64,000 bases of DNA, from positions 372,001 through 436,000 of the forward strand of contig DATMBG010000051.1 of the NCBI GenBank assembly GCA_035559535.1, in the 5' to 3' direction. The stretch is from Candidatus Limnocylindrales bacterium (lineage in GTDB: Bacteria > Moduliflexota > Moduliflexia > Moduliflexales > JAUQPW01). The notes under the pieces were generated by a model. It was not told the DNA's origin. It did no database searches and saw nothing but the letters and a program-made list of their open reading frames with translations. The translations under genes and the position numbers were made by a program. Below are positions 9,790 to 20,704 of the stretch, piece after piece (the stretch's first letter is position 1; every line of letters begins with the position of its first letter).

Positions 9790-10030
9790 ACCCCACCATG
9801 GCATGCTTTAGAGACTCCAAAGAGATAAAAAAGGAGAGACAAAATTCGTCACTTTTCCTTGTCATAACATCTATCTAAGTTCTTACCTTTTCAAACCGGA
9901 TACCCTTTCACCGGAAAATATTACCTAAAGAAAATAACAGTAATTTAAAGGCTTAAGCCCTATAGAAGCAGTCTATTTATAACTATGACATTCTAAACTT
10001 CTCCGCGCCCCGTAAGAACTCCCCGTCTGA

Positions 10031-10206
10031 TACTTTGTTTACTTAGTTTTGTGTAACTTTTAAACCGCTCCTCCCCCCCTAGCCCCCCAGTTCCCCCTCT
10101 GTAGGAGCGGGAGGCCTCCCGCCCCTACTGGGGGACAGGGGGTGAGGGGAGAGGGGGTTGGGGTGAGGGCCACTTAAATGTTAAACAAAACTAAGTAAAC
10201 AATGTA
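10031..10206. mobile_element. 176-bp MITE-like element with 22-bp TIRs enclosing nested hairpins and a GTAG-type REP
   Basis: TACTTTGTTTACTTAGTTTTGT (10031-10052) vs ACAAAACTAAGTAAACAATGTA (10185-10206), 21/22; central GTAGGAGCGGGAGGCCTCCCGCCCCTAC. Confidence 0.72.
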
Positions 10207-10505
10207 CTCATACATTGCAGTGTTCTAATACTAAATAAATAGGTCACATAACCTGCAGGGCGATCCCCCAGGATCACCCTTTAACAGGGCGGCTTTCCGG
10301 AGTTGTTCCTGGCGGTCATACCGGATTTTAACAGGAATAGGAATTAGCATATATATTGCATGCCCCTTTTATCAAGGATATCCATTTTCCCGAGGAACGA
10401 TATAAAAGGTAAATAACTCCTGGTTTCTTGCAAGAACACCTTAAAACTTAGGATCATCTCGACAGGTTATTCGATCTGTTACGCCGAAGAAAGGAGTCCG
10501 TACTT

Positions 10506-10985
10506 ATGAGGCCAGTTCAGCTTAAAAAGAACCAGTTGGGTTTTACTCTAATTGAATTACTGGTGGTAGTCACCATTATCGGTATTATTGCAACTATAGC
10601 CGTTCCGAATTTATTAAATGCCACTCAAAGGGCTCGACAACGTAGAACCATGGGAGACATGAAAACCATCGCCAATGCCATAGCCCAGTATCTTCAAGAT
10701 AACAGTATTGTACCTCTGGGAGGTTCGATAGGAACTACTGTTACAACTCCAAATACCAGTCTTAACAACGTATTAATTCCCACTTATATAACGGCTATTC
10801 CAGACCGGGATGGCTGGGGTAATCCTTTTCGTTATATTGTATCGGCCAGAGATTCTTATACCCTTGAAAGTAGAGGGCGAGACGGGATTAATAACGTTAA
10901 CGCAACAAGGAATGACCAAAATTGGGATCATGACCTCATGCTGAGTAATGGAATATTTATTGCCTCCCCGGACTCCGGTACCTAA
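10506..10985 (+). CDS. Type II secretion GspG-like pseudopilin / type IV pilin
   Basis: Prepilin cleavage motif G-FTLIELLVV, hydrophobic helix, DGWGNPF and SRGRDG motifs; AAGGAG RBS. Confidence 0.85.
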   Translation: MRPVQLKKNQLGFTLIELLVVVTIIGIIATIAVPNLLNATQRARQRRTMGDMKTIANAIAQYLQDNSIVPLGGSIGTTVTTPNTSLNNVLIPTYITAIPDRDGWGNPFRYIVSARDSYTLESRGRDGINNVNATRNDQNWDHDLMLSNGIFIASPDSGT

Positions 10986-11049
10986 CCCATCGAAGGAAAA
11001 AGCAAACAGGCAAGCATGGATCTTTTTTACTTAGAGGGGGTACTTTATT

Positions 11050-11273
11050 TCGTTCCCAGGCTCTGCTTCAACGGTATTAAGTTAAGAGCAGGTAATAAGG
11101 TGGAAGGTTTTTTAGCTCCTTAGGGAGCATCCTGTTAAACAGGACGCTCTGAAGGGGCTTTAAGGCTATTTAGAATTTTGTAGCTATTAACAGGCCATTC
11201 CTGGCACCTATGTCCCTCACTCCCCTTCCCCCCTCTCCTGAAGCTTCAGGAGGGGGAGGAAGGGGAGTGAGGG
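11050..11273. repeat. Cluster of REP-like palindromes
   Basis: Near-perfect 60-nt hairpin 11214-11273; CATCCTGTTAAACAGGACGC core shared with 20838-20857; TCGTTCCCAGGCTCTGC half-palindrome. Confidence 0.6.
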
Positions 11274-11311
11274 AAGGTAACCTGCGATTCGATGTTTCTC
11301 ACCGGATAGAG

Positions 11312-11500
11312 TTACCTTCCATTCTGTTCCATCAATTTAGCCACCAGCCCTGTCCAACCCGTCTGATGACTGGCTCCAATGCCTGCACCGTTATCTCCGT
11401 GAAAGTATTCATAAAACAAAACAAGATCCTGCCAGTATGGATCTTTTTGGAATTTTTCTGTACCTCCCTAAACAGGTCGGCGACCCTCAGGACCTCTGGC
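11312..11500 (-). pseudogene. C-terminal remnant of a GH63/MGH1-like glycoside hydrolase
   Basis: Hand translation: [60 protein letters not shown]; in-frame TAG; 5' part missing. Confidence 0.8.
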
Positions 11501-11513
11501 CGGAGTTATCGTT

Positions 11514-12734
11514 TTAATGTTTAACAAATGGAACCCCCTCCGCAGCCGGTGGGGTAGCACGTCCAATAAGACCTGCCAATACGATCATGGTTACCAGATA
11601 GGGAATCATACTGAGGAACTGATAGGGAACCTGGACGCCGGAGATTTGTAGCTTGATCTGAAGGGCATCAGCAAATCCAAATAGAAGGGCGCCCCCAAAG
11701 GCCCCCCCTGGATTCCATTTTCCAAAGATCATAGCTGCCAGGGCGATAAATCCTTTGCCTTCGGTCATCATATCATCAAAGTTACCCACCGTTTCCAGCG
11801 AGAACCAGGCCCCTCCAAGCCCTGCGAGGAAACCACCCACTATGACATTGATATATCGTATTTTGAAAACAGAGACTCCCAATGTATCGGCCGCCTGGGG
11901 ATGCTCACCCACCGCACGGGTTCGTAACCCCCAACGGGTATAGAAGATAAGAACATGCAAGGTAGGAACCAGGATTAATAAGGCATATACCATGGGTTGA
12001 TTACGGAAGAAGACTTGACCGATGAGAGGCAGGTCCGAGAGAACAGGAATCTGCCAGGCCGGAAAAACCGGGGGAGCTGGTAAAGGGCTATCCACAATAA
12101 AAGCCTTGCGAATAAATCCGGTAATTCCAATGGCCAGAATATTAAGGATCATCCCGCTGATAATTTGGTTTACTAAAAATCGAATGGAGAGTACGGCATG
12201 GAGGGCAGCCGTAAGGCCACCGGATAGGACGGCAATAATCAATCCCAACCAAATGTTTTGTGTATAAAGAGCTGCCACAAATCCTGTACATGCTGCAGTG
12301 AGCATCATCCCCTCAATAGCCACGTTTATCACTCCGGAGCGTTCGCAAAGGATACCTGCCAGAGCACCTAAACCGATCGGTGTGGCTAACCGCAAACTTT
12401 GTGCAAGCATCCCGATTACATCGATCTGTCGTCCCGCACCGGCCCAGATAAGTACAATAAACACCATGAGGAATGGTGCGATTCTCCGGGGCAGGAGCTG
12501 AAAAACCCTCCCTAATCTTTTCTCCAGCCGGAAGGAAAATGGGAGTGGGGCATACAAAATCCCCAGGATAATAGAAATCATTCCACACATCAGAAAGGTA
12601 AATTGGGTGGGGAGTTTTAGGGTTCCCAGGGTAGAGAAGCGCAAAGAGGAGGTCATATGGGGTGCCATAGCTGAAGCACTCCATAAGAGAAACACACCGA
12701 AGAGTAAATAAAACAGGCCCAAGTTAGAAAGCAA
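11514..12734 (-). CDS. Nucleoside/simple-sugar ABC transporter permease 2 (NupC/YufQ type)
   Basis: ERSGVINVAIEGMML, GLRTRAVGEHPQAADTLG, GKGFIALAAMIFGKW, PAAEG. Confidence 0.9.
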   Translation of the reverse strand: MLSNLGLFYLLFGVFLLWSASAMAPHMTSSLRFSTLGTLKLPTQFTFLMCGMISIILGILYAPLPFSFRLEKRLGRVFQLLPRRIAPFLMVFIVLIWAGAGRQIDVIGMLAQSLRLATPIGLGALAGILCERSGVINVAIEGMMLTAACTGFVAALYTQNIWLGLIIAVLSGGLTAALHAVLSIRFLVNQIISGMILNILAIGITGFIRKAFIVDSPLPAPPVFPAWQIPVLSDLPLIGQVFFRNQPMVYALLILVPTLHVLIFYTRWGLRTRAVGEHPQAADTLGVSVFKIRYINVIVGGFLAGLGGAWFSLETVGNFDDMMTEGKGFIALAAMIFGKWNPGGAFGGALLFGFADALQIKLQISGVQVPYQFLSMIPYLVTMIVLAGLIGRATPPAAEGVPFVKH

Positions 12735-12745
12735 AAATCAAATTG

Positions 12746-13789
12746 TCAGTTGATTCGATATATCCAGCGCACAATTTGATTTGCTGCAATAAACATAATG
12801 ACCAGAGCTTGTATTATACTGATCAGATCAATGGAGATTCCGGTTCGAACCTGCATCAGACCGGCCCCATTCCGGAGACCACCCCAAAGAAAGGCCGAAG
12901 GTATAATACCTATAGGGTTCGATTTGGCCAATAAAGCGACTGCGATGGCATCAAACCCATAGCCGGCAGAAAAAGCTGCCGGTAGGGTATGATTCAGCCC
13001 CAATACTTCCCCTACCCCGGCCAATCCGGCCATGGCCCCGGCCATGGCCATGGCCAGAACTATATTACCGCCTACATTCATCCCGGCATATCTGGCCGCG
13101 CCGGGATTGGCTCCGACCGTGCGAATCTCAAAACCCAGGGTCGTCTTGAATAATAACCAGTGGGTAAAAACAACAGCTGCCAGTGCCAGGAGAAAACCGG
13201 CATGCAATCGATAATCGGGTCCAAAAATTCTCGGTAGCTGGGCTGTCGGAAGAATGTAAGGCGTACGATCCATGCTGGCCGCAGGATCACGAAAGACATT
13301 TTTTACCAAATAATCCACCAGTTTGAGGGCAATATAATTCATCATGATGGTATTGATTACCTCATGGGCACCTAATTTGGCTTTAAGGAGACCCGGAATG
13401 GAACCCCAAACACCCCCACTTATAGCTCCAACAACCAGAGCTAAGGGTAAATGAAGCCAGGCAGGTAATCCCTGTACGGCATAACCCACAATCACGGAGG
13501 CCAGGGCTCCCATATAAAACTGCCCTTCCGCGCCGATATTAAACAAACCCCCTTGAAATCCTATGGCAACCGCAAGGCCTGTTAACAGGTAAGGAGTCGC
13601 AGCAACACACGTCTCGATAAGCGCACGCCGTGATCCAATCATTCCCTCAAACAAACCCCGATAGGCTTCAAGAAAGTTGACTCCACTTATTTCGATCAGG
13701 ACGGCACCCAGGATTAATGCCGTACATACGGCCAGGATAGGGATGAGGATTTCTCTAAAGATCGGTACCATCTGCCTTCTACTTTTCAT
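12746..13789 (-). CDS. Nucleoside/simple-sugar ABC transporter permease 1 (NupB/YufP type)
   Basis: GLFNIGAEGQF, HEVINTIMMNY, GFEIRTVGANPGAARYAG, GYGFDAIAVALL. Confidence 0.9.
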   Translation of the reverse strand: MKSRRQMVPIFREILIPILAVCTALILGAVLIEISGVNFLEAYRGLFEGMIGSRRALIETCVAATPYLLTGLAVAIGFQGGLFNIGAEGQFYMGALASVIVGYAVQGLPAWLHLPLALVVGAISGGVWGSIPGLLKAKLGAHEVINTIMMNYIALKLVDYLVKNVFRDPAASMDRTPYILPTAQLPRIFGPDYRLHAGFLLALAAVVFTHWLLFKTTLGFEIRTVGANPGAARYAGMNVGGNIVLAMAMAGAMAGLAGVGEVLGLNHTLPAAFSAGYGFDAIAVALLAKSNPIGIIPSAFLWGGLRNGAGLMQVRTGISIDLISIIQALVIMFIAANQIVRWIYRIN

Positions 13790-13793
13790 TTAT

Positions 13794-15374
13794 TTATTTT
13801 ATTCCAGCCATCCACAACCCTAAAACTTCTCGGGATGCCTCTTTCGCATCCACGGTAGCAAGGATATGACCTCGATACATTACGGCAATTCGATCCGAGA
13901 GGGATAAAATCTCATCCAAATCTACAGAAACCAGAAGGACCGCGCATCCTTGATCCCGCTTCCGTAGGATCTGCTTGTGAATAAATTCTATAGATCCAAC
14001 ATCCAGGCCGCGGGTAGGCTGGGCGGCAATCAGTAGGATAATCGATCGAGAGAATTCCCGGGCAACAACCATTTTCTGTTGATTACCGCCGGACAGATTC
14101 CCGGCTCTAATGAAAATGCTAGGGGTCCGAATATCAAACTCCGTAACCAGACGCATTGCATGTTCTTCAATAGCCGCCTGGTTCCTTACAATCCCTCGTG
14201 CAAAAGGTTTTTGGTAATAGATATTGAGAACCAGGTTATCGGTCAGGGGGTAGCTATCCACCATGCCATAGGTATGGCGATCTTCGGGAATATGGGCCAC
14301 ACCTTGTTCCAGGATTTTCCTCGGACCCGAATAGCCGGAGTGAATAAAGGGGGTCATATCAACTCCGTTTATGTGGATACTACCGGCGATTGTTTTTCGC
14401 AAACCGGTCAAGGCTTCAACTAACTCCGTCTGTCCATTACCTTGTACTCCAGCGATCCCCAGAATTTCGCCTGGATAAATATCCAGGGATACTCCTTTCA
14501 CAGCGACAGAACCACGATCATCTGTCACCTGCAAATCCTGAACATGCAAGACAGGTTTTCGGTCGGATACTTCCCTCTGAAACTCCAGGGGTTTTTTCTC
14601 TACGGCCAGAATAACCTCACGTCCCACCATCATGGAAGCCAGTTGGGTTTCCGTAGTTTCCTTAGAGGTTGTCGTTCCCACCACCCGCCCATTGCGTAAG
14701 ACGGTGATACGATGGGCCACATGGAAGACTTCCCTTAGTTTATGGGTAATAAAGATGATGGATTTGCCTTGCCGGGCCAGTGAACTTAGGGTACGGAATA
14801 AATTTTCAGATTCTTCTGGAGTCAGTACCGCCGTGGGCTCATCCAAAATCAGAATGTCCGCCCAAATCGAGCTTTTGGACTTAGATTCTCCGTTGGATTG
14901 TCGATAAAGGGCCTTAAGGATTTCCACTCGCTGACGAATACCTACGGGTAGATCCTGGATAAGAGCTTGAGGATCAACTTCCAGATGGTATTGCTCGGAT
15001 AACTCCCGAATTCGATCTGCCGCCTGCTTCAAATCCAGAAACAAGCCTCCCCGCGTTACTTCATTTCCGAGAATTATATTTTCGGTAACGGTCATAACCG
15101 GTACCAGCATGAAGTGCTGGTGGACCATTCCGATACCATGGGCAATAGCATCCTTGGGACTCGTCAAATGGACTTTGGTTCCATTCAAGAAAATCTGACC
15201 CTCATCCGGCCTGTAGAGGCCATACAGGATATTCATCAAGGTTGTCTTACCGGAGCCGTTTTCACCCAAGAGGGCATGAATCTCTCCCTTCTCCAATCGG
15301 AAATCCACATGATCATTAGCCACCACCCCGGGGAATCGCTTTGTGATTCCCCGCATTTCCAATACCAAAGTCAC
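13794..15374 (-). CDS. CUT2-type ABC transporter ATP-binding protein (NupA/YufO type)
   Basis: GENGSGKT, GMVHQHFMLV, LDEPTAVL, GVQGNGQ, LSGGNQQK, AQPTRGLDVG; two fused NBDs. Confidence 0.93.
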   Translation of the reverse strand: MTLVLEMRGITKRFPGVVANDHVDFRLEKGEIHALLGENGSGKTTLMNILYGLYRPDEGQIFLNGTKVHLTSPKDAIAHGIGMVHQHFMLVPVMTVTENIILGNEVTRGGLFLDLKQAADRIRELSEQYHLEVDPQALIQDLPVGIRQRVEILKALYRQSNGESKSKSSIWADILILDEPTAVLTPEESENLFRTLSSLARQGKSIIFITHKLREVFHVAHRITVLRNGRVVGTTTSKETTETQLASMMVGREVILAVEKKPLEFQREVSDRKPVLHVQDLQVTDDRGSVAVKGVSLDIYPGEILGIAGVQGNGQTELVEALTGLRKTIAGSIHINGVDMTPFIHSGYSGPRKILEQGVAHIPEDRHTYGMVDSYPLTDNLVLNIYYQKPFARGIVRNQAAIEEHAMRLVTEFDIRTPSIFIRAGNLSGGNQQKMVVAREFSRSIILLIAAQPTRGLDVGSIEFIHKQILRKRDQGCAVLLVSVDLDEILSLSDRIAVMYRGHILATVDAKEASREVLGLWMAGIK

Positions 15375-15382
15375 TAAAGCCT

Positions 15383-15533
15383 ATACCTTTTCAAGTTGAA
15401 AATGGTCCTTTTGGAGGGTTATGGCCAGCAACCCCAGGAGCGAAGCGATCTGTTGAAGCCAGAAGATAGCTTCGGTTCCCATCACTCCCTGTAAGGACAG
15501 TTCCGGTATCCCAAGATCAACTGGAAAAGGTAT
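15383..15533. mobile_element. 151-bp MITE-like element with 17-bp TIRs
   Basis: ATACCTTTTCAAGTTGA (15383-15399) vs TCAACTGGAAAAGGTAT (15517-15533), 16/17; internal GAGCGAAGCGATCT...AGATAGCTTCG palindrome. Confidence 0.62.
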
Positions 15534-15623
15534 GAGAAGGTAAAAGGCCGAAGTAAAAACACTTTAATTTTTTCAGATCCTATTCCCGGTTTTTGTCTTG
15601 TGCCTTTCCCTCCTCGCCTTTTT

Positions 15624-16628
15624 CTAGACCCCTGTTTTAATCTTCCCCGCCTTTAACCCATCGGCAATTTCTCTGAGTCTGGCTTTTACCGTATCGGGAA
15701 CGGCCGTCTCGGTTTCATGGAAGGGAGCCAATCCAATACCATCATTACCGGCATTGAATAGAGCCGTTCCTCCCTTAAAAGAGCCGTCAACAGCCGCTTT
15801 CACGGCACCATATACAGCATTGTCCACACGCTTCATGGCACTGGACAGTAATTTTTTAGCCCCGGGAGCTTCCCCTTTTTTGAAGGTGGTCATATACTCA
15901 TCCTGATCCACGCCAATGACCCATACCCCTGCCTGGGCAGCACCCAGAATCGCCCCAGAGCCAGTTGTACCACCCCCACCGAAGATCACATCTGCACCTT
16001 CGTCGATCTGGGAAAGCGCAGCAGATTTACCCCGTGCCGGATCGGTAAAACTATCAATATAAACGGCCAGTACTTTACAGTCCGGGCAGACGTACTTTAC
16101 CCCGGCTTCGTAACCTTTTCTAAATCGAACTACCGGCGGAATCTCCATTCCGAGGACGGCTCCCACAATTTTACTCTTGGTCATAAGACCTGCCAGCGAA
16201 CCAGCCAGGAAGCCTGCTTGATCTTCTGCAAAGATAAGACCCAGAATATTAGGAACCGATGGGTCGTAGGCAAAATCTACAATGGCAAACTTCACATTGG
16301 GATATTTCTGGGCCATTTTCTTGGTCGCATCCCCAACCAGAAAACCCACCGTGATAATCATCTCATACCCTTCGGATATAAGCTGTTCAATGTTTTTTTC
16401 ATAATCTGTAGGCTGGCGTGTTTCAATAAAAGCGCTTTTAAGACCAAACTCTTGAACGGCCCGCATCATGCCTTTATAGGCGGATTCATTGAAAGTACCA
16501 TCATTTATCTTGCCTACATCGGTCACCAAACCCACTTTCGTTATATTGGCCGCAGAGACCTGTGATATACCCTGTCCCAGTAAAAGGATTAAGCCCAGTC
16601 CTACTAACTTAAGTAATTTTTTTCCCAT
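15624..16628 (-). CDS. BMP family (PnrA/TmpC-like) nucleoside-binding protein
   Basis: Signal peptide without lipobox Cys; GKINDGTFNESAY, VGFL, FAEDQAGFLAG, FTDPARGK, IGVDQDEY, SAMKRVD; AAGGAG RBS before ATG 16628. Confidence 0.92.
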   Translation of the reverse strand: MGKKLLKLVGLGLILLLGQGISQVSAANITKVGLVTDVGKINDGTFNESAYKGMMRAVQEFGLKSAFIETRQPTDYEKNIEQLISEGYEMIITVGFLVGDATKKMAQKYPNVKFAIVDFAYDPSVPNILGLIFAEDQAGFLAGSLAGLMTKSKIVGAVLGMEIPPVVRFRKGYEAGVKYVCPDCKVLAVYIDSFTDPARGKSAALSQIDEGADVIFGGGGTTGSGAILGAAQAGVWVIGVDQDEYMTTFKKGEAPGAKKLLSSAMKRVDNAVYGAVKAAVDGSFKGGTALFNAGNDGIGLAPFHETETAVPDTVKARLREIADGLKAGKIKTGV

Positions 16629-16699
16629 CTTCGTTTCTCCTTTCTTACTATACTTTTGCATTTTCTCGTAAGCCATGGATTTTATTTATCCACGAAAGA

Positions 16700-16795
16700 C
16701 TATGAGAGTACTGAAGTGTGGAAGTGAGGGGGGGGGTATAGGGAGATTTACCCTTATACCCCATACCCCCCACAACTCCTATACTCCCATACTCT
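16700..16795. repeat. Inverted array of degenerate ~8-nt repeats
   Basis: TATGAGAG/TGTGGAAG/TATAGGGAG units opposed by CCCCATAC/CTCCTATA/CTCCCATA units. Confidence 0.5.
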
Positions 16796-16860
16796 TTGTG
16801 GTCCTCCCTGGAGGCATATTTAAAAACGGCAAAAGTATAGGATCTGTTAAAATAGGTTTT

Positions 16861-17829
16861 TCAGTAAAAAACCGTTCGCGTTCTATGTCTCGGTTTTATC
16901 CTCTTATAATAAGGTTGTTGTCCTCGATTCCAGAGAAGATAGTCTAATTTCATGGCCGTGACTTCCTGTCCCGATCTTTTTAGCTCTTGAACCAAAAGTT
17001 CCACGGCATGAACAGCACACGCCCGAATTTCGACTTCCTCGGGAGAACGAAAAGGAATCAACTCTTCGGCGTCAATCCGTACGGCTAATTCTTCAGTATA
17101 ACGCAGAATACCATCCACCCGGAGAACATGGGGTACCAGATTATCCGCAAAGATGGTCAAGCGGTCCAAATCGTAAAATCGACCAGGTCCCTCCCCACCA
17201 AAGGCCAGGTGAAGATCTGCAGCCATCAACTGGGCCCGTTTATAGAACGGTACCATCCCCTCGCCATACGGTTCGATATCGTTAAAGTAGGGCATTTTAA
17301 TCAGTAGCTGTATCAGTCGCTCCGCCGATGAATCCGCCGCTTCAACTAAACCAACAAAGCTTCCATCAAAATCCTCAAGCACATACCGACCGAGGTCATT
17401 CAAGGCCGTAGCAAAAAGCTGCATAAGCTCCCGCACCGGCTCGTTTTGAAGATCTTGATGGAATATTTTTGCACAATCTTCTAAGGTCAGCCGAACCAGT
17501 TCCTGCGGGGAAAGCGGCCCATGATTTTTATAGTAATCGTTGAGGGAAGAAGCAACAGTGAAGTATCCCGACATACCGGGGCGTTTACGTAAGTACGGAA
17601 AATAGCCGGATCCAAAGTTAATCGTATCCAGTGTCAAAAGGAAGGCAACCGTATCCTCTCCATGGCCTAAATAATGGCAATTTGCATCCAACTCTGGAGA
17701 TTTAATTTGTTCTAAAGGTAGAGAAGCCGCATAGGATGGAATACGATCGTAGTGAATACGAACATGGGTTGCCTTCTCGGCCACGGTTTTGCAGGCAGTT
17801 CGGACCTTTTCTGTCAAACTCACTTCCAT
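16861..17829 (-). CDS. qng1: Queuosine salvage protein, queuosine 5'-phosphate N-glycosylase/hydrolase (DUF2419, C9orf64-like)
   Basis: LDTINFGSG, GYF, FYKRAQL, TIFADNLVPHVL, EVEIRA, LDYLLW and C-terminal HRTRTVFY, the characteristic DUF2419 motif series. Confidence 0.9.
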   Translation of the reverse strand: MEVSLTEKVRTACKTVAEKATHVRIHYDRIPSYAASLPLEQIKSPELDANCHYLGHGEDTVAFLLTLDTINFGSGYFPYLRKRPGMSGYFTVASSLNDYYKNHGPLSPQELVRLTLEDCAKIFHQDLQNEPVRELMQLFATALNDLGRYVLEDFDGSFVGLVEAADSSAERLIQLLIKMPYFNDIEPYGEGMVPFYKRAQLMAADLHLAFGGEGPGRFYDLDRLTIFADNLVPHVLRVDGILRYTEELAVRIDAEELIPFRSPEEVEIRACAVHAVELLVQELKRSGQEVTAMKLDYLLWNRGQQPYYKRIKPRHRTRTVFY

Positions 17830-17902
17830 TCCTTTCTTTCAAAGGCGTAAAGAACGTCCCAGGCTACTACCTTCTTCACGCCTTTGCAAGCAATCCCGAA
17901 AA

Positions 17903-18766
17903 TTAACGGGCGGTTCCTGGCTTTACGGTAGCTGCCAGCTTTTCCAGAGCATCTATCGCCTCAGCTTCAGGCAAGGAAGGGATCAGATGCAAAACCCGAT
18001 TAACTCCTACTTCGGCATAACGGGCGTTGGAGTCAGGATTCGGATCGGCCCGATAAATGGTGATACTGATGGATTTCGGATCTCGACCTGCGGCCATAGC
18101 CAGACGATCCAACTCCCTACGTCCTTCGGCGACCTTTTCCAGGCTGATATAATTTCCTCGTGGTAGCCAGCCATCCCCCCATTCGATGACACGCTTAAAA
18201 ACGTTGGCCGCTTCACCACCTAAAATAACAGGTGGATGGGGTTTTTGAACGGGTTTGGGATAACACCAGACCGGAGGAAATTTATAGTAAGATCCTTGAT
18301 AAGAAGACTCATCCTGGGTCCACAGGGCTTTCATAGCGAGAACGGCATCTTTGGTCTGACGCCAGCGGTGTTCAAAATCCCCACCCATGATCTCGGTTTC
18401 TTCTTTCAACCAGCCGGCCCCTACTCCAAACAAAAACCGACCTTTAGATATCAAGTCCAGCGTTGCGACTTCTTTAGCTAACAATATCGGATTACGCTCC
18501 GGTACCAGACAAATCCCCGTAGCTATTTTCAGTTTCTGGGTTGCAGCCGCTGCCGCTCCCAGAGCAACAAAAGGATCGACCAATTGCTTGTAAAATTCTG
18601 GAAGCTTCCCATCTGGACTTCCTGGAAATCGGGTTTCCATATGGACGGGGATAATGGGATGCTCCGGAATCCATAGGGATTCAAATCCCAAAGCTTCGGC
18701 CTTCTGGGCCAGGGTAATAATATCAATGGACTTGTGGGTTACAAACATGATAATACCGATATCCAT
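17903..18766 (-). CDS. LLM-class probable F420-dependent oxidoreductase (Rv2161c-like)
   Basis: GFESLWIPEH, DPFVAL, AKEVATLDLISKGRFLFGVGAGW, PKPVQKPHPP, WGDGW. Confidence 0.85.
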   Translation of the reverse strand: MDIGIIMFVTHKSIDIITLAQKAEALGFESLWIPEHPIIPVHMETRFPGSPDGKLPEFYKQLVDPFVALGAAAAATQKLKIATGICLVPERNPILLAKEVATLDLISKGRFLFGVGAGWLKEETEIMGGDFEHRWRQTKDAVLAMKALWTQDESSYQGSYYKFPPVWCYPKPVQKPHPPVILGGEAANVFKRVIEWGDGWLPRGNYISLEKVAEGRRELDRLAMAAGRDPKSISITIYRADPNPDSNARYAEVGVNRVLHLIPSLPEAEAIDALEKLAATVKPGTAR

Positions 18767-18844
18767 AATTTTACTCCGTTCTTAGTAAAGGTTTAAAGAT
18801 TGGTTTTTATTTAAAGTATCCGTCTCTCAACCCGGTTACCCAGC

Positions 18845-19837
18845 TCACCTTTTCCGCTCCTCACTCCGATCCGTAGCCGGTGGAGGTTCTGGAGATAGGG
18901 CCGAGATCTCTGCACGAAGCTCCGGCGTCATGTTGATTTCCAGAGCCTTGAGAGAATCTTCCAACTGGGTAACGTTCCGTGCACCCAGAATGGGAGCCGT
19001 AATTGCCGGATGACTGGCAACCCAGGCTACGGCAAGTCCGGCCGGATTGAAACCTCGCTCTTTGGCAAAATGGACAAACTTCTGAGCCACTTCATACATC
19101 CAATCCTCACCGTAACGGTTCTGATACATTTTACTTTCAAAGAAGCGACTCTTAGGGGAAGTTCCATGGGCATCGGGTTGAGGTCGAGAGGTATATTTTC
19201 CGGTCAACAGACCACCTCCCAAAGGACTATAGGAAATAACCCCGATGTTCTCGGACTGGGCCATGGGTAAGATCTCCACCTCGGCCTGACGCTTGACCAG
19301 ATTGTACATGGGTTGAATACACTTAAACTGAACCCAACCTTCTTTGGCAGATATGCCCAACGCTTTGGCAACTTGCCAGGCCGCAAAGTTGCTGGCTCCA
19401 GTGTAAAGAACTTTCCCTTGAGAAACCAAATCATCCAGGGCCCGTAAGGATTCTTCCAAAGCTACTGAAGTATCAAAATGATGCAGAAAATAAAGATCCA
19501 CGTAATCTGTCTTGAGCCGTTTCAAACTGGCCTCAATCGCCGCCATGATATGACGTCGAGAAGTACCTCCACTGTTAATATCAGAACCCATGGGGGCATA
19601 AACCTTGGTCGTAATAATCACTTCATCCCGACAACCCGAAATAAGCTCCCCTAAAATCTCTTCAGCACGTCCTTTTCCATAAACATTGGCACAATCAAAG
19701 AAATTGATTCCTACTTCCCGACAACGATGGAACATGGCTGCCGATGCTTCCTTGTCGGCATCGGTCCCGAAAGACATGGTTCCAAAACACAGGCTGGAAA
19801 CCTTGACGCCGGTATTACCCAGGATTTTATATTTCAT
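18845..19837 (-). CDS. Aldo/keto reductase
   Basis: LCFGTM, FFDCANVY, ITTK, SLKRLKTDYVDLYFLH, GASNF, YSPLGGGLL, PILGA. Confidence 0.93.
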   Translation of the reverse strand: MKYKILGNTGVKVSSLCFGTMSFGTDADKEASAAMFHRCREVGINFFDCANVYGKGRAEEILGELISGCRDEVIITTKVYAPMGSDINSGGTSRRHIMAAIEASLKRLKTDYVDLYFLHHFDTSVALEESLRALDDLVSQGKVLYTGASNFAAWQVAKALGISAKEGWVQFKCIQPMYNLVKRQAEVEILPMAQSENIGVISYSPLGGGLLTGKYTSRPQPDAHGTSPKSRFFESKMYQNRYGEDWMYEVAQKFVHFAKERGFNPAGLAVAWVASHPAITAPILGARNVTQLEDSLKALEINMTPELRAEISALSPEPPPATDRSEERKR

Positions 19838-20041
19838 CCAAAATCCTTATCCCTCAAACCTGCAAAGTGAATGATGGTAAACCGTCCCCCCTGCAAAGTC
19901 TGGGTTTACTTTCTCCTTTTAAGAATTACGCCGTCAACCTTAACCAAATCTATAATATAAAATAGGTTTGTCTATAAAAAATGTTGACAGGAACAAATCA
20001 GGGTATAAAAATTTTTCAAACCCTAGCAAGAAATTATTCTT

Positions 20042-20704
20042 ATGTTATATGCTCAGTTTAATCATAAAAATCCCAAAGGATCGAAATTCCTTACTGCTTA
20101 TGGATCTAAACCGAAAACCCCCTGTTCTAAGGGTGATGATGGAAATCCACCGGAAAGTCGTTTCTGGCTGATACCGACCGACCCATTGACCTGCCTGAAG
20201 ATTTGTTCGAAGAGGATCTATTACCTGGTAAGTATTCTTGGGATTATCGGCTTTACCTCCTGTCTTTCCTTTGCCCAACCTCCACCGCCTCCTTTCTACG
20301 ACGAAATCCAGGTCCCTGTGATGGTTATTACCGATGGAGATACCTTTGTGATGAACATCGGTAATAAGTCCTTTATTGTCGAACCTATCGGTGTTGATGC
20401 CCCTGAGACCAATCCTTTACAGTGTTACGGGATGGAAGCCCAAAGTCGAGCCATGCAGCTTTTAACGGCTAAGATGGTAAAACTCGAAGCAGATCCTGCC
20501 CTGGGGAAGGGCCTTATAAATGGTCGATTACTACGATATATTTGGGTGGATGGCAAGCTCTTCAACTACCTCATGATCCGGGAGGGTTTTGCTAAAACCT
20601 TCAACTACGAGACCTCGTATAATTATCAGATATACTTCTTCGAAGCCGAGCAGGCAGCCAGACAAGAGAAGAGGGGGATTTGGAGGGCCTGTAAAGGAAG
20701 ATAA
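20042..20704 (+). CDS. Thermonuclease (SNase) family protein with hydrophobic leader; start uncertain
   Basis: TDGDT, IGVDAPET, CYGMEA, GRLLRYIW, REGFA, AEQAARQEKRGIWRAC. Confidence 0.8.
   Translation: MLYAQFNHKNPKGSKFLTAYGSKPKTPCSKGDDGNPPESRFWLIPTDPLTCLKICSKRIYYLVSILGIIGFTSCLSFAQPPPPPFYDEIQVPVMVITDGDTFVMNIGNKSFIVEPIGVDAPETNPLQCYGMEAQSRAMQLLTAKMVKLEADPALGKGLINGRLLRYIWVDGKLFNYLMIREGFAKTFNYETSYNYQIYFFEAEQAARQEKRGIWRACKGR

Follow-up and report, generated by a model that had tools for sequence, protein, structure and literature searches.

The 64,000-nt stretch of DNA analysed here, hereafter the window (contig DATMBG010000051.1 of assembly GCA_035559535.1, positions 372,001 to 436,000), carries a gene for an N-glycosidase related to the queuosine (Q) salvage enzyme Qng1 upstream of a complete ATP-binding cassette (ABC) importer of the BMP nucleoside family; all coordinates below are window positions. 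Seven co-oriented genes of the minus strand encode, in the order of transcription, an aldo-keto reductase (AKR), an LLM-class oxidoreductase, the PF10343 glycosidase, the BMP binding protein, an ATPase, permease 1 and permease 2. A first-pass annotation of the sequence had described the last five (qng1, BMP binding protein, ATPase, two permeases) as a head-to-tail run on this strand interrupted by gaps of about 230-250 bp. Pfam confirmed all five genes at the coordinates listed here, and the gaps measure 232 nt between the Qng1-like and BMP genes and 249 nt between the BMP and ATPase genes. The DUF2419 motifs it had reported in the first of the five are likewise confirmed; they belong, however, to a divergent branch of PF10343.

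16861-17829, minus strand: Qng1-like N-glycosidase of the 'DNL' branch of PF10343 (Q_salvage/DUF2419), 322 aa; Pfam 216.5 bits against a cut-off of 25
16629-16860, minus strand: spacer between the Qng1-like and BMP genes, 232 nt; contains a repeated palindromic element that forms a long, imperfect hairpin (core about 16713-16794)
15624-16628, minus strand: periplasmic nucleoside-binding protein of the BMP/PnrA type, 334 aa when counted from the conserved ATG; Bmp PF02608, 194.9 bits
15375-15623, minus strand: spacer between the BMP and ATPase genes, 249 nt
13794-15374, minus strand: ABC ATPase of 526 aa, a fusion of two nucleotide-binding domains; PF00005 (ABC_tran) in two stretches
12746-13789, minus strand: ABC permease 1, 347 aa; BPD_transp_2 PF02653, 146 bits
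11514-12734, minus strand: ABC permease 2, 406 aa; BPD_transp_2 PF02653, 128 bits
17903-18766, minus strand: F420-dependent LLM-class oxidoreductase, 73 nt 5' of the Qng1-like gene; TIGR03619, 258.6 bits
18845-19837, minus strand: AKR, which opens the co-oriented run; PF00248, 259 bits
20042-20704, plus strand: protein resembling staphylococcal nuclease, with a hydrophobic segment at its N-terminus and encoded divergently from the run; PF00565, 58.8 bits

Two genomes represent the genus, that of the window (G000) and that of a congener (G001, locus L013). The longest open reading frame (ORF) of the binding protein spans 15624-16676, with an upstream ATG at 16676, but the start is probably the ATG at 16628, because this codon follows an AAGGAG motif and the congener keeps both but lacks the ATG at 16676; the start at 16628 gives the spacers of 232 nt and 249 nt. 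The remaining distances are short, with 4 nt between the ATPase and permease 1 genes, 11 nt between the two permease genes, and 73-78 nt separating the AKR, LLM and Qng1-like genes.

The structures of Sphaerobacter thermophilus Qng1 (StQng1; 7uk3/7u07) were matched by the window protein at 157 bits over residues 9-322, with about 36% identity, and its AlphaFold2 (AF2) model (pLDDT 95.5) superposes on 7uk3 in Foldseek with a TM-score of 0.88 and a root-mean-square deviation of 2.6 A. The roles of the individual residues were taken from the accessible text of PMC9881137, and conservation was counted over 121 homologues. The catalytic Asp231, Lys199 of the helix-hairpin-helix (HhH) and the C-terminal Tyr323 correspond to D229, K197 and Y322, all three invariant, and the proton relay Asp69/Asn72/Asp207 corresponds to D68/N71/D205, also invariant except for D68 (108/121). 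Likewise invariant are D296 and W300, the equivalents of Asp298 and Trp302, which read the base (7-deazaguanine recognition), and Gln306 is kept as Q304. The ribose-stacking Phe75 and Tyr232 are not kept, S74 (119/121) and N230 (120/121) standing in their place, and with L231 (121/121) at the position of Lys233 the motif FADYK is replaced by FADNL. Three aromatic residues of the pocket for the cyclopentenediol ring are altered as well (W48L, W94F, W299Y). The loop NFCFW...R80 is remodelled and shorter in the DNL branch; the Arg80 equivalent is Y79 in the window protein and, depending on the alignment, Y, H or L in the homologues or part of the deleted loop. An invariant K82 and a nearly invariant R83 (118/121) lie in this remodelled loop and might act as substitutes that still bind phosphate, and a loss of phosphate binding is not claimed. 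The canonical type, found in a sister family of the same phylum, keeps the F and the Y (NFCFW, FADYK) and scores 322-330 bits against the Pfam model, compared with 216 for the window protein. As an N-glycosidase, the enzyme probably releases a base of the 7-deazaguanine type, either queuine or one of its precursors, from the corresponding nucleoside or nucleotide.

Among solved structures, the binding protein is closest to Lbp of Clostridium thermocellum (7x0r, 222.9 bits), followed by PnrA of Treponema pallidum (144 bits). Lbp was crystallised with an endogenous ligand, which its authors modelled as guanosine (PMC9601137, as far as accessible). Mapped by hand on the alignment, the equivalents of PnrA D27, F36, F87, F186, D238 and K260 are present in the window protein, so both the phenylalanines that stack on the base and the Asp and Lys that bind ribose are retained, with the roles of D238 and K260 in part presumed. 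Residue names for the aromatic cradle and the Asp/Lys ribose ligands of PnrA, BmpD and BmpA follow the accessible portions of PMC7093131 and PMC13325309. The N-terminus of the window protein, read by eye, has a hydrophobic signal-like segment without a lipobox Cys. As is characteristic of the family, the protein is encoded together with a double-domain ATPase and two BPD_transp_2 permeases; the NCBIfam models closest to the ATPase are those of sugar/CUT2-type and of 'B6' BMP-system ATPases, all under their cut-offs. Orthologues of the binding protein with 51-77% identity occur in Chloroflexota, 'Candidatus Entotheonella', Desulfobacterales and others, and wherever the contig was long enough (10 complete orthologous loci) the order BMP-ATPase-permease-permease is kept, with ATPases 57-95% identical; the best homologues elsewhere in the phylum of the window, outside its genus, are merely 36-43% identical. 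Since the orthologues found away from any Qng1 gene share this operon order and the pocket motifs, the importer appears to be an ordinary member of a widespread guanosine-type group: on sequence grounds it is a complete PnrA/Lbp-type ABC importer, predicted to carry purine (guanosine-like) nucleosides, without visible specialisation.

Two further features of these orthologous operons were recorded. In some Anaerolineales (L041:6663-8921; L044, L052) the BMP orthologue lies in one frame of 717-753 aa joining SBP_bac_1/8 and Bmp domains; either two binding proteins have fused here or two separate genes are read together for want of a stop codon between them. The domains were assigned by Pfam on the L041 frame, and the other two loci by BLAST clustering. 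In Herpetosiphon and relatives (L046:14405-16030) a gene for an iPGM-like metalloenzyme follows the BMP-ABC operon, and a pgm gene is listed in the C. thermocellum lbp cluster (figure legend of PMC9601137). The Herpetosiphon neighbours (iPGM-like, pyridine-nucleotide oxidoreductase) were considered as a clue to the ligand and proved uninformative.

The association between the two units was surveyed from the Qng1 side in 72 loci, made up of the window and, from its clade, 24 loci of genomes and 47 of metagenomes, a locus being counted as informative with at least 6 kb of total flank (n=31); several loci are duplicates or close kin, and the counts are therefore not independent. BMP-type ABC genes were present inside the fetched flanks of 5/72 loci, namely the window, L013, L102, L115 and L123 (the last with 5 kb of flank). 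In the congener the Qng1-like protein is 96% identical and the Qng1-BMP-ABC order is the same, and this order is found again in the metagenome relative L102 (Qng1 78% and BMP 82% identical), though its upstream genes differ. The five linked loci fall into two clades of a FastTree tree of 64 proteins, whose support values were not inspected. In the clade of the window, L013 and L102, the Qng1-like gene has the same BMP-ABC operon 3' of it in the same orientation, and in L102 (1253-2912) Pfam identifies a PF05014 deoxyribosyltransferase-like gene between the two. In the clade of L115 and L123, the Qng1-like gene is followed by genes for a DeoC-like aldolase and a PF05014-like protein (L115:6905-9465, L123:55-2699; Pfam), towards which a second, non-orthologous BMP-ABC operon converges, 1.5-1.9 kb from the Qng1-like gene, with a BMP protein of 32% identity and another gene order.

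The DeoC/PF05014 pair is also located 3' of the Qng1-like gene in L118, L120 and L121; L022 has a PF05014-like gene alone, 267 nt downstream (tblastn, 60% identity), and in L034 the start of DeoC is seen before the contig ends 285 nt past the Qng1-like gene. These genes may form with the Qng1-like gene a small deoxynucleoside-processing module; tblastn of G000 returned no homologue of either the PF05014-like or the DeoC-like neighbours. A FolE2 gene is located upstream in L115, L034 and L116.

Beyond the window clade, 1/12 PF10343 loci of Actinomycetota (G180, a third and very divergent type) divergently adjoins a BMP-ABC operon, and the six sister-family loci fetched have no adjacent BMP operon, although one has BMP genes 8.6-10.9 kb away. 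With about three BMP operons per genome, about 1% of a genome would lie within 7 kb of one, and by this rough estimate about 0.3 matches would be expected in 31 loci; linkage in two independent clades would thus exceed the expectation, though not by much. In two sister-family genomes (L153:9158-11024, L154) a lone 277-aa ABC ATPase gene follows the canonical Qng1 gene (80 nt apart in L153), with no permease nearby; genes of this kind may lie behind the PF00005 candidate of PMC11130926. A conserved neighbour of the Acidobacteriota Qng1-like genes (L031, L032, L035) was examined as the UPS permease of that work and rejected, as it has no Pfam match.

The genome of the window encodes TGT (intact, 362 aa), QueA, QueG, YhhQ and QueF (178 bits; cut-off 86.9). 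QueF, TGT and QueA are shared with the congener; the searches for QueG and YhhQ, both successful, were confined to G000. QueE was not found in G000 or G001 (95.8% and 97% complete), two QueE models giving only radical-SAM cross-matches of 20-24 bits (ORFs of 339 and 458 aa), and genuine QueE proteins, taken from queE-queC-queF clusters, found no match in G000 by tblastn. A QueC-like protein (78.7 bits against an NCBIfam equivalog cut-off of 150.3) and a QueD-like one (82.1 against 89.25) stay below threshold, and the presence of a full de novo pathway, considered earlier, was dropped after the NCBIfam cut-offs and the QueE searches had been applied. Of the pattern anticipated by the first-pass annotation, tgt present and queCDEF absent, tgt is indeed there and QueE was not found, but QueF is clearly present, and QueC- and QueD-like genes occur below the cut-offs. 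The latter two (G000:C12:30856-32800, L010) adjoin a gene for a pteridine-reductase-like short-chain dehydrogenase/reductase (SDR), a cluster that may belong to a different pterin or deazapurine pathway.

PF10343, TGT and QueA occur in 9/9 genomes of the small phylum to which the window belongs, QueF is restricted within it to the genus of the window, and none of the 5 sister-family genomes searched for QueE gave a score above 32 bits. With TGT and QueA throughout, QueE undetected and QueF in the genus, the phylum looks, from its gene content, like a group of 7-deazaguanine salvagers still using preQ1-type machinery. The TGT of the window genome has the motifs DEC and GGLSVGE, which we take to be those of a preQ1-type enzyme. 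The same motifs occur in the sister-family genomes that have canonical Qng1 and lack QueF, and the TGT signature was consequently discarded as a test of queuine use, being equal in both families of the phylum. With QueF, QueA, QueG and YhhQ in its genome and no QueE found, the cell itself looks like a preQ0/preQ1 salvager and not a direct user of queuine; under the scheme of PMC11130926 and PMC11570991, in the portions accessible, the pattern of the phylum suggests either that preQ0/preQ1 is taken up or that queuine is salvaged 'indirectly' via a queuine lyase. A second TGT paralogue (335-413 bits) accompanies canonical Qng1 and QueA, without QueF, in 5/7 sister-family genomes (L163/G007, L164/G008, L165/G003); in three aligned loci it is about 43% identical to the first, with the motifs altered to LDIC and GGLNVGE, and could be a queuine-type TGT.

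The DNL branch extends well beyond this phylum. A search for relatives gave at least 8000 significant candidates, the best 120 of which are 66-94% identical, and the DNL motif was checked in this best-scoring set as well as in the loci fetched; the related proteins recovered, from many phyla and in varied gene contexts, are 57-96% identical. An Actinomycetota sample of 401 genomes, centred on the unpublished genome G019 (PF10343 and QueF present, TGT and Bmp not found), contains 12 PF10343 genes, 10/12 of them of the DNL type. TGT was found in 17/20 PF10343-bearing genomes searched and, in a separate actinomycete DNL group, in 10/10 genomes, with QueF in 1/10; in the window clade, QueF occurs in 8/10 genomes and a QueE-like gene (67-73 bits) in 4/10 (G015-G018), adjoining QueF in G015-G017, with QueF also present in G018. 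The DNL branch is thus tied to Q by association. In one locus (L092, G261:C534; 8924-9691, minus strand, and 9930-10982, plus strand) a DNL gene divergently adjoins a divergent TGT paralogue (281 bits), neither of whose two active-site motifs is the one usual in bacterial TGT.

The spacers had been described as carrying repeat insertions, which is correct for the first and not for the second. The 232-nt spacer folds as a long hairpin (minimum free energy of -87.8 kcal/mol, z = -7.1 against 200 shuffles), of which four partial copies exist elsewhere in the genome, and the congener keeps a spacer of this type with a shorter hairpin. The 249-nt spacer is also structured (z -3.2), but it is single-copy in the genome, and spacers of 51-268 nt at this position in the orthologous operons of relatives (199 nt in L102) indicate that it is usual for this type of operon. 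Scans for sigma-70 promoters and intrinsic terminators gave results not above those of shuffled sequences, with no site within either spacer. The best Rfam match to the spacer hairpin, a miRNA precursor (26.4 bits, E 0.22, gathering score 84), is at chance level. A near-perfect palindrome is located at 11203-11283, just 3' of the permease 2 gene; its core recurs at no fewer than a dozen further sites of the genome (28 BLAST rows, both strands counted) and yields spurious miRNA-like Rfam matches, and a 104-aa ORF lying over it (11210-11524) matches no family and is unlikely to be a genuine gene.

Based on these observations we tentatively favor, with rather less than even confidence, a loose coupling of the BMP-ABC importer and the DNL glycosidase in nucleoside scavenging by a bacterium apparently unable to make 7-deazaguanine. 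The importer would take in guanosine-like nucleosides broadly, possibly queuosine too; the glycosidase would release the base; and the base would enter the preQ1-type tRNA pathway (QueF, TGT, QueA, QueG), directly or after further conversion. What we infer here is that the two units are coupled, which substrate is used and where the released base goes, while the gene identities, the fold, the conserved residues, the recurrence and rarity of the linkage and the presence of Q genes without a detectable QueE are observed. Several of these lines are consistent with such a coupling: the nucleoside-binding residues are kept and the closest solved BMP protein was modelled with guanosine; linkage is found in two DNL clades with different operons and orientations; the genes lying between the Qng1-like gene and the BMP operon in L102, L115 and L123 are nucleoside-processing; and DNL proteins are associated with TGT, in a genus with QueF and no detectable QueE and a phylum in which all nine genomes have PF10343, TGT and QueA.

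Other observations weigh against this interpretation. Linkage was found in 4/31 informative loci, the Qng1-like gene of the other 27/31 lacking BMP-type ABC neighbors, and none of its neighbors is conserved overall; from the BMP side, a Qng1 gene was found near 0/18 orthologues. The association that the first-pass annotation had pointed out is hence not unique to this genome, recurring in L013 and L102 and, with another operon, in L115 and L123, but it is rare. A PF10343 search in 5 genomes with BMP orthologues gave no match in 3/5, and of the remaining two one has a weak match (27.8 bits) and the other a DNL-type gene elsewhere. The pocket motifs of the window BMP protein are those of its unlinked orthologues, including orthologues from genomes without PF10343, and accordingly there is no sign of specialisation. 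The glycosidase is not limited to salvagers, given that G015-G018 have both QueE and QueF, and a Bmp gene was not found in two Actinomycetota genomes of the window clade (both incomplete metagenome-assembled genomes, one of them G019). An Rfam scan of 10500-20500 at E <= 1 returned nothing besides sub-threshold miRNA-precursor matches to two hairpins, with no preQ1 or other riboswitch, and the 232-nt hairpin spacer may split the transcripts. To our knowledge, moreover, queuine is not a substrate of preQ1-type machinery.

Much of this evidence would equally suit a coincidental adjacency, in which the ABC system is a general purine-nucleoside importer serving nucleotide salvage or carbon supply and the Qng1-like enzyme works independently, for example by clearing or recycling queuosine nucleotides from the turnover of the cell's own tRNA. 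The rarity of linkage from either side, the BMP orthologues with identical pocket motifs in genomes without PF10343 and the hairpin spacer between the two units all agree with it, as do the conservation of the DNL protein over many phyla in varied contexts, which would be expected of a stand-alone housekeeping enzyme, and the AKR and LLM genes, which at 73-78 nt look like the true operon partners of the Qng1-like gene. However, coincidence accounts poorly for two independent clades with different BMP-ABC operons and nucleoside-processing genes in between, for the same Qng1-BMP order in the window and L102 despite differing upstream genes, and for linkage above the roughly 0.3 matches that would be expected in 31 loci, and we regard it as somewhat unlikely.

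A dedicated queuosine importer feeding Qng1, with queuine destined for tRNA modification, would constitute a new class of transporter for Q and is essentially what the first-pass annotation had proposed for this ABC system. Queuosine is a 7-deazaguanosine, and the closest solved BMP protein was modelled with guanosine; QueE was not found in either genome of the genus, PF10343 is phylum-wide, the linkage recurs and the synteny is kept in L102. A DNL enzyme without the canonical 5'-phosphate ligands would suit an imported, unphosphorylated nucleoside and require no kinase, and the ABC family PF00005 scored high among the untested candidates near bTGT, Qng1 and QueK in the accessible text of PMC11130926. 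Yet every point raised against the looser coupling applies equally here, from the rare linkage and the lack of a riboswitch to a pocket undifferentiated from that of unlinked orthologues, and the guanosine modelled in Lbp and the divergent branch of the Qng1-like protein count against it too; nothing pinpoints queuosine as the cargo. Furthermore, QueF, QueA, QueG and YhhQ are a set for preQ0/preQ1 and not for queuine, the invariant Lys82 and near-invariant Arg83 might still bind phosphate, and the only tested transporter beside a bacterial qng1 (UPS, Acidobacteriota) moved preQ0/preQ1 and not Q, according to the same text. A dedicated queuosine importer is, in our view, distinctly doubtful. 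Its most far-reaching form, in which BMP-type ABC systems are a further class of bacterial importer of the queuosine nucleoside, feeding a phosphate-independent DNL Qng1 and, with a queuine-to-preQ1 step, supplying Q to the whole of a small phylum devoid of QueE, would be a long shot.

Improbable, finally, is a different substrate for the DNL enzyme among modified purine nucleosides, deoxynucleosides or nucleotides, such as the 7-deazaguanine deoxynucleosides that modified DNA would yield or preQ0/preQ1 ribosides, in a locus that would dismantle imported nucleosides for base and sugar and have no special link to queuosine itself: the PF05014-like gene directly 3' of the Qng1-like gene in L102 and L022, the DeoC-like and PF05014 genes 3' of it in L115, L118, L120, L121 and L123, the replaced ribose contacts F75 and Y232, the three altered residues of the cyclopentenediol pocket, the direct use that QueF and TGT could make of a preQ0/preQ1 base and the nuclease gene nearby speak for it, but G000 has no PF05014-like or DeoC-like homologue, and both the equivalents of D298 and W302, which face the 2-amino-6-oxo edge, and the proton relay, which uses the amine of the Q side chain, are conserved.

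As to the flanks of the window locus, the LLM gene 5' of the Qng1-like gene is kept in the congener L013 only, a gene for a pyridoxal-phosphate (PLP) enzyme taking this place in L102, and the AKR gene is likewise found at this site in L013 only. The other flanking genes are unrelated (lactate utilisation, MsrPQ-like, pseudopilin), with the exception of the divergent nuclease-like gene at 20042-20704, whose product, if secreted, would suit a neighborhood devoted to nucleic-acid scavenging.

The DNL branch is large and conserved, has altered ribose and phosphate contacts and is present in makers and non-makers of preQ0 alike; its annotation as 'queuosine salvage protein' may be too specific. If the ABC system does carry Q, it would add a transporter class and provide a handle on the exchange of Q in environmental communities. 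According to PMC11130926 (accessible text), a single ECF system is known to bring the queuosine nucleoside into bacteria, and for most predicted salvagers no transporter has been assigned. The same work surveyed transporters adjoining bTGT, Qng1 and QueK, and 'ABC transporter (PF00005)' is among its ten top candidates, listed as not tested; PF02608 and PF02653 do not appear in its main text, and its Tables S2 and S3 may already hold the association described here. A literature search returned no paper joining queuosine with a BMP-family ABC transporter, and a search on DUF2419, ABC transporter and queuosine listed none on such a locus.

Compared with known systems, the window protein resembles Qng1 of S. 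thermophilus and human C9orf64, a queuosine-5'-phosphate N-glycosylase (PMC9881137, in part), in its full-length homology, its fold and its catalytic and base-reading residues, but differs from the S. thermophilus enzyme in belonging to a separate, internally conserved branch with FADNL, a shorter loop and three changed aromatics. Likewise, the importer shares family, cradle, ribose ligands and operon make-up with PnrA/TmpC of T. pallidum, BmpD and BmpA of Borrelia, PnrA of S. pneumoniae and Lbp of C. thermocellum, and is set apart from these systems by the missing lipobox Cys and by the glycosidase gene upstream. The known and candidate uptake systems for Q precursors, namely QPTR/YhhQ, ECF-QrtT/QueT with QueK and QueL in C. 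difficile, and the MFS, HlyIII and UPS candidates (PMC11130926, main text), have in common with the window a transporter beside a signature gene of Q salvage and a de novo pathway that is, or in the case of the window appears, incomplete. In contrast to them, the window presents, as a candidate, a type I ABC system with a BMP protein, linked to the salvage gene in few lineages, in a genome that also has a YhhQ homologue of its own.

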